A stretch of 64,000 nt of DNA from Nitrososphaerota archaeon (GTDB lineage: Archaea; Thermoproteota; Nitrososphaeria; PSMU01): the NCBI GenBank assembly GCA_040290255.1, contig PSMU01000001.1, positions 128,001 to 192,000 of the forward strand, written 5' to 3'. The notes beneath the pieces were generated by a model. That model saw nothing but the letters and a program-made list of their open reading frames with translations, had not been told where the DNA came from and did not search any database. The position numbers and the translations under genes were made by a program. Positions 2,156 through 13,503 of this stretch are shown here, piece after piece; position 1 is the first letter of the stretch, and each line of letters starts with the position of its first letter.

Positions 2156-2245
2156 GGTCGCACGCTCCGCTCATAATATAACTCTTTACCAGCCAAGAGC
2201 TTCAGCTACGGCCTCAGCCATGATGTCGGAATCGCGCCAGCGAGA

Positions 2246-2343
2246 TGCGGGGGGTGGGATTTGAACCCACGAACCCCTTAAGGGACGAGGTCTCTCAATA
2301 TATCCTAAGCCTCGCGCCTTTGACCAGGCTCGGCCACCCCCGC
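2246..2343 (-). tRNA. tRNA-Leu(TAG) with canonical 37/38 intron (12 nt, 2292-2303)
   Basis: GCGGGGG acceptor; CGAGG-CTTAGG[ATATATTGAGAG]A-CCTCG anticodon arm; long variable arm; GTGGG-TTCAAAT-CCCAC. Confidence 0.93.
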
Positions 2344-2432
2344 ACGCTAAACTGCATTGTATTCTCTTATAAGTAAAACGTCGGCGTTTTTTGACAAGAG
2401 CCACTTTACATGATCCAAGTTAAGCCGTTAGT

Positions 2433-2891
2433 ATGCTGTTGGCCGATTGGCAGATTCGACGGGCCCTAGCGCTAAAGCGCTTGGTCATAGATCCTCTGGA
2501 CGAGGCGCTCATTCAACCTAATGGCGTAGACATAAGGATGGGCTCGGAGTTCAAGTTTCTAGACAAGACGGAAAGCTTTCGGGCTTCCTCCATTCTGCTT
2601 GAGCCACATCGCAGTGTCCTCTGCACTTCGTACGAGACGTTTAGAATGCCTAACGATTTAACTGGCATCATTTGCTTGAAGAGTTCCTACGCCAGAAGAG
2701 GCCTGTTAGCGCCTACCACAGTTATAGACTCCGGGTATTATGGCCGCTTAACGCTTGTCTTGACAGCCGGCAGCGCAGCCATCGAGCTCAGGAGCGGTGA
2801 ACCCATATGGTATCTCCTGCTGGTCCGCTCAGCCAAAGTAAAGAAACCCTATTCCGGCAAGTACCAAGGCATCGACGTTTTGTCGCAATAA
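2433..2891 (+). CDS. dcd: dCTP deaminase (trimeric dUTPase family)
   Basis: 'IQPNGVDIR', 'KSSYARRGL', 'IDSGYYG', 'YSGKYQG'. Confidence 0.88.
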   Translation: MLLADWQIRRALALKRLVIDPLDEALIQPNGVDIRMGSEFKFLDKTESFRASSILLEPHRSVLCTSYETFRMPNDLTGIICLKSSYARRGLLAPTTVIDSGYYGRLTLVLTAGSAAIELRSGEPIWYLLLVRSAKVKKPYSGKYQGIDVLSQ

Positions 2892-2908
2892 ACCAGCTTA
2901 ACCTAGAG

Positions 2909-2980
2909 GGCCGCGACCGGGAATCGAACCCGGATCTGGAGGTCCACAGCCTCCCGTGCTGCCATTGCACCATCGCGGCC
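2909..2980 (-). tRNA. tRNA-His(GTG) with genomically encoded G-1
   Basis: G-GCCGCGA..GGAGG-CTGTGGA-CCTCC..TTCGATT..TCGCGGC-C. Confidence 0.93.
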
Positions 2981-3058
2981 ATACGCCTAGAACAGTTTAG
3001 CACCTTTAACCTTTTCATCGACGGCGCATCTCATTCATGTGAGTTAGTGTGCAAGCAG

Positions 3059-3132
3059 TGGACCGGGCGGGATTCGAACCCGCGACCTCCCGCGTGCGAG
3101 GCGGGCGTTCTACCAGGCTGAACTACCGGCCC
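3059..3132 (-). tRNA. tRNA-Ala(CGC)
   Basis: GGGCCGG/CCGGTCC-A acceptor with G3:U70; CCCGC-CTCGCAC-GCGGG anticodon arm. Confidence 0.95.
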
Positions 3133-3226
3133 ATCAGCATCTCAAAGCAGGCTCCTTTAAAGTTACCAAGCCTTAACTCACCGAGAACCTGAGGATATAC
3201 CTTTGGCGCTTCGATCATAGCTTAGT

Positions 3227-3318
3227 TGGCGGGCCCGGTGGGATTCGAACCCACGACCTACGGGTCTCTCTACAGCGGTCTAAGAGCCCGCCGCTCTACC
3301 GTGCTGAGCTACGGGCCC
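3227..3318 (-). tRNA. tRNA-Lys(CTT) with canonical 37/38 intron (15 nt), encoded CCA
   Basis: GGGCCCG acceptor; GCGGG-CTCTTA[GACCGCTGTAGAGAG]A-CCCGT; BHB central helix CTCT/AGAG. Confidence 0.93.
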
Positions 3319-10275: not shown

Positions 10276-10644
10276 GTGAGCCGGGGCTTGGAGGAACTTA
10301 AGATGGCGATCGTTCTCAGAGCCGACATCAAAATGGGCAAGGGCAAGCTTGTGAGCCAGGCCTGTCATGCGGCCATAGAGGCCTATGAATCGGCCAGGGC
10401 AAAGAGCCCCGACCTCTGCGCTACCTGGCGGGAACAGGGAGCTAAGAAGATCGTGCTAAAGGTAGATTCTCTACAAGCGCTCTTGGAGTTGGCCGCGAGA
10501 GCTGCAGCCCGGGGTTTGCCACATGCCCTTATAGTTGATAGGGGCCTGACTCAAATCCCGCCCAATACTCCTACAGCCCTAGGAATAGGCCCGGCTCCAT
10601 CTTCGTTACTTGATCAGATAACCGGCTCACTTAAGCTCCTTTAA
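10276..10644 (+). CDS. pth2: Peptidyl-tRNA hydrolase Pth2
   Basis: 'MGKGKLVSQACHA', 'KIVLK', 'DRGLTQI..TALGIGP'. Confidence 0.93.
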   Translation: MSRGLEELKMAIVLRADIKMGKGKLVSQACHAAIEAYESARAKSPDLCATWREQGAKKIVLKVDSLQALLELAARAAARGLPHALIVDRGLTQIPPNTPTALGIGPAPSSLLDQITGSLKLL

Positions 10645-11117
10645 TCCTCGCTCTTCAGGGAGGTGGCCCTTTTTCCTAATCTGTGCTTTAGCTCCCTATC
10701 AGAGAGTATCTGAGGCGCTCTTGGGTCAACGCAAATCAATTCGACGAAGACGTACCTTCCATCTTGAAATAGCTTATAACCACCCAAGGGGACTAGGTTA
10801 GGATATCTCTTCCGAGCCCTCTGCAAGGCCACCTCAACATAGTTCAGGCTCACCTTCCTTCTCTTTACGCCCAGCGCCTTCTGTCGCCTTCCGGCCCTCG
10901 GCCGCTGCCTTCTCATGGCCTTCCGGCCAACCCTTACCCGCAGTACTACCATACCCGGTTTATCCTTGTAACCTACTCTGCGGGCCCTATCGATTCTAAT
11001 CGGCTTGTCAAGACGCACGATAGCCGGCTCTCTCCTCCACTTTACCAGCCTACTCATGAGTAGGTGCCTCTTTTCTTTCCACAGCTCTTGCCATGTTTCG
11101 GTCATATAGCTATACAT
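10641..11117 (-). CDS. rpl15e: 50S ribosomal protein L15e
   Basis: 'WRREP', 'RIDRARRVGYK', 'RKRYPNL', 'DGRYVFVE'. Confidence 0.92.
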   Translation of the reverse strand: MYSYMTETWQELWKEKRHLLMSRLVKWRREPAIVRLDKPIRIDRARRVGYKDKPGMVVLRVRVGRKAMRRQRPRAGRRQKALGVKRRKVSLNYVEVALQRARKRYPNLVPLGGYKLFQDGRYVFVELICVDPRAPQILSDRELKHRLGKRATSLKSED

Positions 11118-11193
11118 AACCTCCTCCCAGCCCCCCTCCGCCTAGTATAAAAGTGCACGTTGATCCACACGGCTCTAGTTATCAGGCTCACTC

Positions 11194-12346
11194 TCACTTA
11201 TCCGCCTCGACAGGCCAATAATTTAGTGACCAGAAGGATACGGGAACGTCGGCAAGGCGATACCCTTCTATAACCTTCGGTATGGCCGGCAGGTTCCTAA
11301 AGGAGGGAGTCGAGATGCGCACTCTGTAAGGATGAGGACCTCCGTCGGAGATTATATGGTAGGACATGCAGCCTCGGGCGGCCTCGGTTCTGGCGTAGGC
11401 TTCCCCCACCCTGCCTCGTAACTGCCCTCTTAGGGGCAGCCTGACAGGGCCCGGCCTCATCTTCCTGATCGCCTGTTTGATGATCTTTAGGGACTCCAAC
11501 ATCTCGTAGAAGCATACCCAACAGCGCGCCCATGAATCCCCCTCCTGCATAACTGGAACCGAAAACTCGAAGGTATCATAGAGCGAGTAGGGCTCGTCTA
11601 TCCTTACATCCGATTTAACGCCGGAGGCCCTAAGGGTTGGGCCTACGCATCCTAGGGCTATGGCATCCGCCTTGCTCAGGAAGCCCACGTCCATAGTCCT
11701 TTTTTCGAAAACAGGGTTTTCAAAGTAGATTTTCTTGTACTCTTGGAGCCTGCCCTCGAAGTACTCGCAGACTTTAAGCACCTTATCTTCCCAGCTGGGA
11801 GGCACATCACACCTTACCCCACCAGGCACATAGTAGGCAAAGGTAACCCTAGCGCCTGAGGCCATGGCAGCCAAGTCGATAAAGTACTCGCGATCCCCGG
11901 TTGCCCACATGAACATCGTGCTGTGACCCGTAAATATGCCCTGTATGGCAAGCCAGTACAAGTGGCTGATAATCCTGTTAAATTCCGCCATTATCACGCG
12001 CAGGTATTGCGCGCGTTCCGGCACCTTCTCGCTCAACCCTAGCAATTCTTCTACCGCCAGCACATAAGGAAACAATATGCCACATGAGTCTAAGATTACA
12101 GGCCGTTCAAGGTGAGGTATATTCTGAATATAGGTCCTATACTCGCACATTTTCTCCTCGCCCCGGTGGACGTACCCTGGGTCGGGGATACACTTGATGA
12201 CGATATCGCCATCTAAGGTCACTATTAGCCTAAAGTGCCCACTTCCCGGATGTTCCCCCCTACTAGGTCTGGGGACCTATTGAGACAGTGAGCACGTTAT
12301 CTGCTACTCGCTCCTCTGTGTAGACATGTTTGAGTGCCGACTCCAA
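11194..12346 (-). CDS. nuoD: NADH-quinone oxidoreductase subunit D, split gene: exon 1 12346-12269 (TTG start), exon 2 12252-11194; 378 aa spliced
   Basis: Exon 2 has 'GYVHRGEEK', 'ERAQYLR..EFNRI.SH', 'EAARG', 'PYRVRISTPS'. Exon 1 ends 'LTVSIGPQ' and exon 2 begins 'HPGSGHFRL'. SD-like GGTGGT at 12356-12351. Confidence 0.93.
12253..12268 (-). other. 16-nt bulge-helix-bulge pre-mRNA intron in nuoD (ACCTAGTAGGGGGGAA)
   Basis: Sense strand: GGT-CCCC-[AG^A]-CCT-AGT-AGG-GGGG-[AA^C]-ATC. Cutting after the 2nd nt of each bulge yields GGT CCC CAG CAT CCG (GPQHP). Confidence 0.9.
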
Positions 12347-12378
12347 GAGGACCACCGCATCACGCTTAAGGCTACGAG

Positions 12379-12386
12379 CTTTTAAA
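12379..12386 (-). promoter_or_regulatory. Probable TATA box for nuoD (TTTAAAAG)
   Basis: AT-rich box about 33 nt upstream of the TTG start. Confidence 0.5.
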
Positions 12387-12468
12387 CCTGCCCCTGCCGT
12401 TCTTGCGGCCCAGCTATTAGGCGAGAAAAAGCCTTTTTACCAAGCGAAGCCTTGGCCTGGATAACAGC

Positions 12469-13503
12469 TTGCAAGCACTGGAATCGCTCGAGGCCCTCTT
12501 CTACGAGGATCTCGGATTACTTGAGGCTAGGATTCAAGAACTTGCTTCAAGGCTCCACTTTCCCTCCTACATGCTGTACATGACTCGAGGGGGCAAGCGA
12601 TTGAGGCCGCTAATCGCCTTAGCCGTTTGTAAGAGCTTAGGCGGTTCAGCTATGGGGGCCGTGGACTATGCTGCTGCGATAGAACTGGTTCATTCCGCCG
12701 TCTTAGTACATGACGATATACTTGACAGGCATAACATGAGGCGAGGTAAGAAACCGCTCTATAGGCTCTTGGACCCCCGCCGCTCTCTTCTGTTGAGCGA
12801 TATGCTTCTGAGCTCAGCCCTCAAGCTTACCAGCTCCGCTGACGGCAGCAAAGATACGCTCAGCGATACTGTGTATACGCTCTGTAGGGGCGTGGCCATG
12901 GAGCCGCTTAACCCCCTCCGCTTTCTTAGGAGGAGCCTTAACTTAGGCATCTTGCCTACATTCTATGAGTTAATAGCCCGGCTTAAGACGGGGGAGCTCT
13001 TCGGTGCGGCGGCTAAGATGGGAGCGATTGCCGCTGGAGCACCAGCCAAGACCATAGCTGCAGCGTATCAATATGGCGTTGAGGTTGGCACGGCCTATCA
13101 GCTCGCTGATGACCTGGTCGATTTCATATCATGGTCCAAATACGGCTCGATACCAGACCTAGGTTCTTTGCTGACGGTCACTTTATTCATTCCTTACGCC
13201 TCCACTAGCTATGAAATGAGCAGATATTTGCTGAGCCGCGTCCTTCATTCTTATGTGCTGTTCCGGCTACTAACACCGATAAGGCTTGGAAAAGCCCTAG
13301 TGGCGTTGACGCCTCCGAGGGGCATAGTTCAGAGCTTGGTCAGATCCGCGCTTAATAAGATTCGCTCGTACTGCTCCTCAGCTAAGAGGGCCTTGGCTTC
13401 CTTCCCTGACAACAAATACAGCTGGTTACTGCTTCAGCTCCCAAATTATGTGGTTAACAGGCAGCTAGCTGAAGTTGGTCTTTCGCTGGAAGAGACAACA
13501 TGA
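12469..13503 (+). CDS. Polyprenyl diphosphate synthase
   Basis: 'GGKRLRP', FARM 'HDDILD..RRG', 'KTG', SARM 'YQLADDLVD'. Confidence 0.88.
   Translation: MQALESLEALFYEDLGLLEARIQELASRLHFPSYMLYMTRGGKRLRPLIALAVCKSLGGSAMGAVDYAAAIELVHSAVLVHDDILDRHNMRRGKKPLYRLLDPRRSLLLSDMLLSSALKLTSSADGSKDTLSDTVYTLCRGVAMEPLNPLRFLRRSLNLGILPTFYELIARLKTGELFGAAAKMGAIAAGAPAKTIAAAYQYGVEVGTAYQLADDLVDFISWSKYGSIPDLGSLLTVTLFIPYASTSYEMSRYLLSRVLHSYVLFRLLTPIRLGKALVALTPPRGIVQSLVRSALNKIRSYCSSAKRALASFPDNKYSWLLLQLPNYVVNRQLAEVGLSLEETT

Follow-up and report, generated by a model that had tools for sequence, protein, structure and literature searches.

A 16-nt insert in nuoD of a hot-spring archaeon of the class Nitrososphaeria is very probably a tRNA-type bulge-helix-bulge intron

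The nuoD locus and its interruption

The window analysed here is a stretch of 64,000 nt (positions 128,001 to 192,000 of contig PSMU01000001.1) from the genome GCA_040290255.1, hereafter G000, and its numbering is used for nuoD. The host is a hot-spring archaeon of the class Nitrososphaeria, and the assembly is of metagenome type (1.21 Mb in 9 contigs, 91% complete, 63% G+C). On the minus strand, a frame open from beyond 12400 ends with ...VADNVLTVSIGPQ (V-S-I-G-P-Q) and is followed by 16 nt reading ACC TAG TAG in the same frame. A second frame then begins with HPGSGHFRLIVTLDG, coding for HPGSGHFRL, and runs to a stop at 11194-11196 (Table 1). Excision of the 16 nt gives ...SIGPQ^HPGSGHFRL (here and below, ^ marks a cut or a junction), matching relatives such as locus L004 (...VSIGPQHPGSGHFRLI). 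Two starts can be considered for the restored protein: TTG 12346 gives 26+352 = 378 aa, the size already proposed in the initial annotation of this DNA, and GTG 12355 gives 381 aa. Given the general picture of archaeal promoters, the TTTAAAA at 12386-12380 could be the TATA box of a leaderless mRNA starting near GTG 12355. The list of open reading frames holds at this place just a 342-aa ORF from GTG 12222 and a 30-aa ORF upstream. An Rfam search of 10500-13000 at E<=1 gave no match.

Table 1. Features of the interrupted nuoD gene, in window positions
Feature	Position	Strand	Description and basis
nuoD exon 1	12269..12355	-	codes (M)VLLESALKHVYTEERVADNVLTVSIGPQ if GTG 12355 is the start; alternative start TTG 12346
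Probable BHB intron, 16 nt	12253..12268	-	tandem in-frame TAG TAG at 12265-12260
nuoD exon 2	11194..12252	-	352 codons starting HPGSGHFRL; PF00346 match
hBHBh' motif	12249..12277	-	motif scan; background rates from genome scan and shuffles
Possible extra exon-exon helix	12240..12290	-	predicted (MFE fold); pairs 12290-12282 with 12247-12240
TTTAAAA box	12380..12386	-	read from the sequence; ~25 nt upstream of GTG 12355

The identity of the gene is clear from a profile search, in which exon 2 matched Pfam Complex1_49kDa (PF00346) at 9.5e-80. With P0127 as query, an uninterrupted public protein to which we return below, Thermus Nqo4 was matched at 6.9e-77 with the N-terminal QHP loop aligned. 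In Nqo4, the insert position corresponds to Q33^H34, with His38 four residues further on, within a loop which we take to bind the quinone head group. This N-terminal QHP loop of NuoD is complete only once the 16 nt are excised.

One may imagine that NuoD is made in two pieces, an exon 1 peptide of ~29 residues assembling non-covalently with a separate 342-aa product, since GTG 12222 does open an in-frame ORF of that length and exon 1 is conserved. However, the 342-aa product would be devoid of HPGSGHFRLIV, which is encoded between the insert and this GTG and is conserved in all relatives. Moreover, the peptide would end ...GPQT, and the bulge-helix-bulge (BHB) motif described below would be left unexplained. 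Such a two-piece protein seems to us extremely unlikely.

The whole assembly contains a single nuoD. An intact copy elsewhere, if joined by transcripts that are all unspliced, was named at the outset as a finding that would speak against an intron, and this 91%-complete genome holds one nuoD only. nuoC, nuoB and nuoH, single and intact, lie at 235-238 kb of the same contig (C3), where inspection of the locus revealed no nuoD downstream of nuoC. nuoD has moved ~95 kb away from these genes and is flanked by genes for ribosomal protein L15e and a polyprenyl synthase, with no homing-endonuclease gene next to it. When C3:40000-200000 is followed, window positions 1-28000 included, the G+C content goes from ~0.63 to 0.50-0.53 around C3:104-144 kb and then to 0.65-0.70 beyond 200 kb, other large contigs being steady at 0.62-0.68. 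nuoD, the L15e gene and several tRNA genes sit within this trough; the shift is gradual and thus does not look like a chimeric join.

Before any reading of the insert, its presence in the DNA of the organism had to be considered. G000 is a 9-contig assembly of metagenome type and the comparison was made with assembled contigs rather than raw reads, so that one could suspect an assembly or sequencing artefact, the 16 nt being absent from the organism. Yet Logan contigs assembled separately from 4 runs of 3 studies span 12253-12268 with 0 gaps, without joints and without omitted letters, although the window itself may stem from one of these runs. The search of sequencing runs for this stretch listed none from RNA. 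Among the runs carrying the 16 nt are word depths of ~190 and ~1,250. They include a contig of 9,093 nt from a ~2.4% diverged strain (34 differences over 1,433 positions), in which there is no difference between 12097 and 12308, the insert and its flanks being thus unchanged. The prospect of DNA lacking the 16 nt, raised in the initial annotation, therefore found no counterpart in the contigs of any of the 4 runs, and we give an artefact practically no weight.

The diverged strain is also informative about the exons. Exon 2 shows 11 synonymous and 7 non-synonymous changes and exon 1 one synonymous and one V>I change, compared with 10 in the 113 nt that separate exon 1 from the upstream gene. 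Having so few changes relative to this spacer, exon 1 evolves like coding sequence.

A bulge-helix-bulge motif at the junction

The junction was scanned for the canonical geometry, in which each strand of a 4-bp helix is followed by a 3-nt bulge, an inner hairpin separates the first bulge from the second strand and an outer helix encloses the whole. At length 16, exactly one match is obtained, GGT / CCCC / AG^A / CCT-AGT-AGG / GGGG / AA^C / ATC, identical to the parse given in the initial annotation. The outer helix GGT/ATC pairs 12277-12275 with 12251-12249 (3 bp) and the central helix CCCC/GGGG pairs 12274-12271 with 12258-12255 (4 bp). The 5' bulge occupies 12270-12268 and is cut after 12269, the 3' bulge occupies 12254-12252 and is cut after 12253, and the inner hairpin between them (12267-12259) consists of a CCT/AGG stem with loop AGT. 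Cuts after the second base of each bulge excise exactly the 16 nt and join CAG to CAT. Since the outer and the inner helix both have 3 bp, the motif qualifies as a strict hBHBh'. A register shifted by -1 was also tried and was rejected, inner and outer helices being lost.

How often would such a motif arise by chance? Genome-wide, strict 3/4/3 motifs occur in G000 at 7.0e-5 per site and length (23,435 hits, counted on both strands for lengths up to 150). When the exons were kept fixed and the 16 nt shuffled, 105 of 200,000 sequences (0.05%) gave a strict BHB in the exact register; with random 16-mers in their place, the count was 54/200,000 (0.027%). The 16-mer was also looked for elsewhere in G000 as a test of mobile origin: no copy exists at <=2 mismatches, and 7 are found at 3 mismatches vs ~10 expected.

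Predicted folding energies carry little weight either way. The minimum free energy (MFE) of the 56-nt junction, -16.8 kcal/mol, is not unusual compared with shuffles (z = -0.25), and the corresponding fold contains the central and inner helices but lacks the 3-bp outer helix. The canonical BHB conformer is at -6.4 kcal/mol, or at -12.4 kcal/mol with a distal exon-exon helix, hence 4-10 kcal/mol above the MFE. In our reading, nearest-neighbour models penalise 3-nt bulges, and these energies are therefore uninformative on the nuoD BHB. The distal helix (Table 1) is a predicted one and may possibly clamp the motif, as faintly suggested by the fold; an analogous 7-bp exon-exon helix, in another register, exists in the relative L036 presented below. 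As counterpoints to the intron reading, we note that the outer helix has 3 bp in G000 and 1 bp in L036, and that the canonical conformer is not the MFE structure.

Further protein-coding BHB introns were sought in the whole G000 genome by three screens: ORF repair on the 23,435 strict hits, a codon-usage filter on 101,871 relaxed hits, and a tighter filter. These yielded 2,645, 3,927 and 514 candidates, respectively, most of which were adjacent genes or antisense frames that stay open at 63% G+C. nuoD was recovered but did not stand out among them, and we propose no other intron from these screens.

nuoD in related genomes and an insert-free protein

We surveyed nuoD in genomes of the class, all from outside the family of the organism. 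A first set of 41 genomes gave 39 with nuoD, and a set of 401 gave 378; four genomes are flagged as unpublished, and no result given here rests on them. Among the 150 matches listed, nuoD frames have at least 369 aa in all cases but G000 (360 aa). The junction was inspected in 199 loci, some genomes being counted twice. There, 189 loci encode G-x-Q-HP in one frame and 6 GP[SA]HP in one frame; one locus starts too near the motif for the test but is uninterrupted, and one gave no motif. Interruption at this site concerns 2 of the 199, namely G000 itself and L036. The initial annotation had proposed an alignment with related genomes, and this comparison thus brought out a second lineage with a different BHB insert, one base upstream.

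Several observations made along this survey concern other nuoD genes. Six genomes of two families (G005, G009, G017, G025, G029 and G037; loci L023, L025-L027, L029 and L030) have a ~30-residue in-frame insertion near query residue 270, and these are the loci with GP[SA]HP instead of GPQHP. In G021 (C27:10240-11333), one in-frame TGA lies between match residues 287 and 272, which could be a break, a recoding event or an error.

L036 is a metagenome contig of 57.6 kb whose NuoD is the closest found (264/352 residues identical, 75% at the amino acid level) and where nuoD still comes after nuoC. Its frame reads ...NVLTLSIGPQ, followed by 30 nt with an in-frame TGA and then by HPGSGHFRV. These 30 nt also fit a BHB, in one register only: the central helix is ACCG/CGGU, the bulges are CA^A and AG^G, 5+3 bp make up the inner stem, a single adjacent pair forms the outer helix and the 7-bp exon-exon helix lies distally. 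Excision joins CA to G CAT, giving Q-H and rebuilding GPQHP. Only 3 of 200,000 shuffles of this insert reach a register-exact BHB, and the 71-nt fold has z = -3.75. A phase-0 register was tried for L036 and rejected, no central helix being formed. On the same contig, upstream of nuoC, a ferredoxin-type ORF (L036:3-449, Fer4 at residues 82-99) is preceded by a stretch ending ...VVHN directly before a Cys. This stretch resembles the C-terminus of an intein within a NuoI-like subunit; the locus is truncated on its 5' side.

The two inserts differ in length (30 vs 16 nt), in sequence, in position by one base, L036 being upstream, and in phase (2 vs 0). In the central helix, the exon side shows synonymous differences, GGT CCC C in G000 vs GGA CCG in L036, and the intron partners differ to match, a covariation read from these two sequences. 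Between the two genes, pS is 0.77, that is saturated, with a pN of 0.19. Over the last 15 codons of exon 1, E-E-R-x-A-[DE]-N-V-L-T-[VL]-S-I-G-P is kept, 9 of the 12 identical residues being encoded by different synonymous codons. Both exons are thus under purifying selection, as judged from the sequences.

Predicted proteins from both types are truncated. In the 90% cluster of G000 type, all 7 members are calls of 342 or 318 aa, as anticipated by the initial annotation, according to which standard annotation would miscall the gene as truncated. They include one sub-type, ~90% identical by eye, found on contigs up to 776 kb. The 9 members of the L036-type cluster comprise 6 truncated calls of 318-340 aa on 28 contigs, 2 fragments and P0127. 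Among more distant homologues, P0039 (336 aa, 66% identity) and P0092 (341 aa, 60%) are called without the N-terminal GPQHP, unlike their relatives; they may correspond to cut contigs, wrong starts or further interrupted genes.

Could nuoD simply be dead, the insertion having disabled it and left complex I non-functional or free of NuoD? The truncated calls (342/318 aa for the G000 type, 335-340 aa in most of the L036 type) and the ~95 kb separating nuoD from the other nuo genes would agree with a pseudogene. On the other hand, 352 codons contain no other frameshift or stop, the exons are open and constrained both between strains and in two lineages with saturated synonymous sites, and the same spot harbours two different inserts that are both register-exact BHBs. 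Synonymous sites being saturated while the exons are conserved, a gene broken before the divergence of G000 and L036 would not look so. Besides, nuoB, nuoC and nuoH are intact in a genome without a second nuoD. A dead gene is very unlikely.

P0127 deserves particular attention. This public protein of 380 aa, from a single 4,630-nt JGI/IMG contig, is composed of L036 exon 1 (28/28 residues) and exon 2 (352/352 residues) joined at Q^H. Prokaryotic gene callers are not known to perform splicing, and the nucleotide sequence behind P0127 should therefore be continuous and free of the 30 nt. Its source is either metatranscriptome cDNA or, in a population identical in other respects, an allele that lacks the intron. 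Whichever origin is right, the boundaries predicted from the BHB are those of a natural insert-free form.

Translational recoding would be another way around the stops, with a +1 frameshift or hopping in G000 and TGA read-through in L036, leaving extra residues between Q and H. A +1 shift after CAG indeed reads PSRGE and then HPGSG in frame, and the 30-nt insert of L036 is a multiple of three with one TGA. However, two lineages would need two different mechanisms, no slippery site was seen and take-off and landing codons do not match. The outcome would be unrelated peptides, of 5 residues in G000 and 10 in L036, placed in a loop for which 196 of 199 loci show no interruption. P0127 is without extra residues, and the register-exact BHB would have no explanation. 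We hold recoding to be as improbable as a dead gene. Bypass of the T4 gene 60 type was considered separately and rejected: take-off would be at CAG (CAA in L036), but the landing side, ...GGAA^CAT and ...TAGG^CAT, has neither CAG nor CAA.

Taken together, we favour the reading that the 16 nt are an archaeal BHB intron within the nuoD coding sequence, at a probability of roughly 0.85 on the DNA evidence presented here. The insert would then very probably be a genuine, old, tRNA-type intron cut out of the mRNA. Its age is suggested by the nearest known relative, which has a longer BHB intron, and by exons under purifying selection. Alternatively, the different intron phases in G000 and L036 could mean independent gains rather than one old intron.

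Splicing enzymes, precedents and significance

G000 is equipped for this kind of splicing, in agreement with the dependence on the tRNA-splicing machinery put forward in the initial annotation. It encodes two splicing-endonuclease (EndA) paralogues of 184 and 189 aa (C4:317215-317766 and C3:57059-57625), each with N- and C-terminal domains (PF01974/PF02778), and RtcB (1.7e-170). One EndA paralogue displays the Tyr/His/Lys catalytic pattern, as read from the sequence, and the other is without the His; there being two paralogues, one of them without the catalytic His, we read the enzyme as a putative heterotetramer.

Of the 28 tRNA genes of this genome, 14 carry an intron according to aragorn, although a few of these introns are long and clearly spurious. 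Our own strict scan found, in the T-loop (59/60) of tRNA-Glu (C3:248489-248505, minus strand), a strict BHB intron of 17 nt, an example of the non-canonical tRNA introns of Thermoproteota and Nitrososphaeria. Its central helix has 4 bp and its bulges 3 nt each, with 5 bp in the outer helix and 3 bp in the inner stem; its excision rebuilds a normal T-arm. aragorn overlooks this intron and gives a spurious one of 1,415 nt for another Glu call. Within the window, the genes for tRNA-Leu, -His, -Ala and -Lys are clustered at 2244-3318 (C3:130244-131318), where Lys-CTT has a 15-nt intron at the canonical position according to aragorn. The nuoD insert, of almost equal length, resembles the tRNA-Glu intron in having a central helix of 4 bp, a pair of 3-nt bulges, an inner stem of 3 bp and a loop of 3-4 nt. 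It differs in that the host RNA is an mRNA, that the outer helix comes from two coding segments instead of a tRNA stem and that the unspliced form has in-frame stops. Presumably, the same enzymes act on both.

We suppose that, in the pre-mRNA, exon 1 would pair with the 3' part of the insert over 4 bp, between two 3-nt bulges. The two-subunit splicing endonuclease would cut after the second base of each bulge, and RtcB would join the exons into ...GGT CCC CAG^CAT CCG..., coding for a NuoD of 378-381 aa with GPQHP. The spliced product would hold the junction peptide SIGPQHPGSGHFR, whereas ribosomes on the unspliced mRNA would meet the tandem TAGs and terminate after ~30 residues.

Splicing of this type has precedents in protein genes. 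In 2002, Watanabe reportedly found a BHB intron in the cbf5 pre-mRNA of Desulfurococcales and Sulfolobales. According to the accessible text of Yokobori 2009 (PMC2738675), cbf5 introns lie within the catalytic Asp codon, often with relaxed motifs, and some have frame-keeping lengths of 33 and 39 bp. The same text places them in species with hetero-oligomeric endonucleases and suggests intron loss via reverse transcription of spliced RNA. The nuoD insert shares with them its nature of a short tRNA-type intron in a protein gene, adjoining a functionally important residue. As far as the accessible text on cbf5 goes, the likeness extends to a host with two EndA paralogues, to the frame-keeping 30 nt of L036 and to presence or absence varying among relatives. 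Unlike the cbf5 introns, the insert lies in subunit D of complex I and in the class Nitrososphaeria, and G000 cbf5 is itself uninterrupted, a search for an intron there giving a single open frame of 336 aa. Compared with cbf5 motifs, often relaxed in the text cited, it is a strict motif of 16 nt, for which splicing is predicted.

The initial annotation had given cbf5 as the established example of such a gene. It is not the sole precedent, and to call nuoD the first such gene after cbf5 would go a little too far: the accessible part of a 2023 review (PMC10485636) also counts HVO_1309 of Haloferax volcanii, giving two archaeal genes spliced by the tRNA machinery, with more expected. As predicted for nuoD, HVO_1309 is in that source an archaeal mRNA processed by the tRNA-splicing endonuclease; it occurs, unlike nuoD here, in a euryarchaeon with an alpha2 enzyme. 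In the part of the Caldiarchaeum genome paper that was available, introns are named for tRNA and rRNA only and complex I is termed "incomplete complex I". Full-text searches, supplements aside, returned no description of a nuoD intron.

A wider joint reading would make the nuoD intron an ancient, selected switch through which the splicing enzymes gate NuoD, with P0127 derived from a metatranscriptome. We find this combination unlikely. If it were true, respiration would be coupled to the RNA-processing state, or to temperature through the marginal stability of the BHB fold; the intron would have slid by one base between lineages with the protein junction kept, and P0127 would be direct in-situ evidence of splicing.

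For the more modest reading of a BHB intron in nuoD, the practical consequence lies in annotation. Gene callers give a NuoD of 318-342 aa without the quinone-site loop, so metabolic reconstructions could wrongly call complex I defective, and gene models should take BHB motifs into account. With its 16 nt, the intron is near the smallest size that a full BHB motif allows. BHB introns are rare in archaeal protein genes, and nuoD would be a new case of this rare but known kind; in the class Nitrososphaeria, no such protein-gene intron is known to have been described. If the reading is true, nuoD would be, by the count in the accessible part of the 2023 review (PMC10485636), the third archaeal protein gene spliced by the tRNA machinery and the first in energy metabolism.
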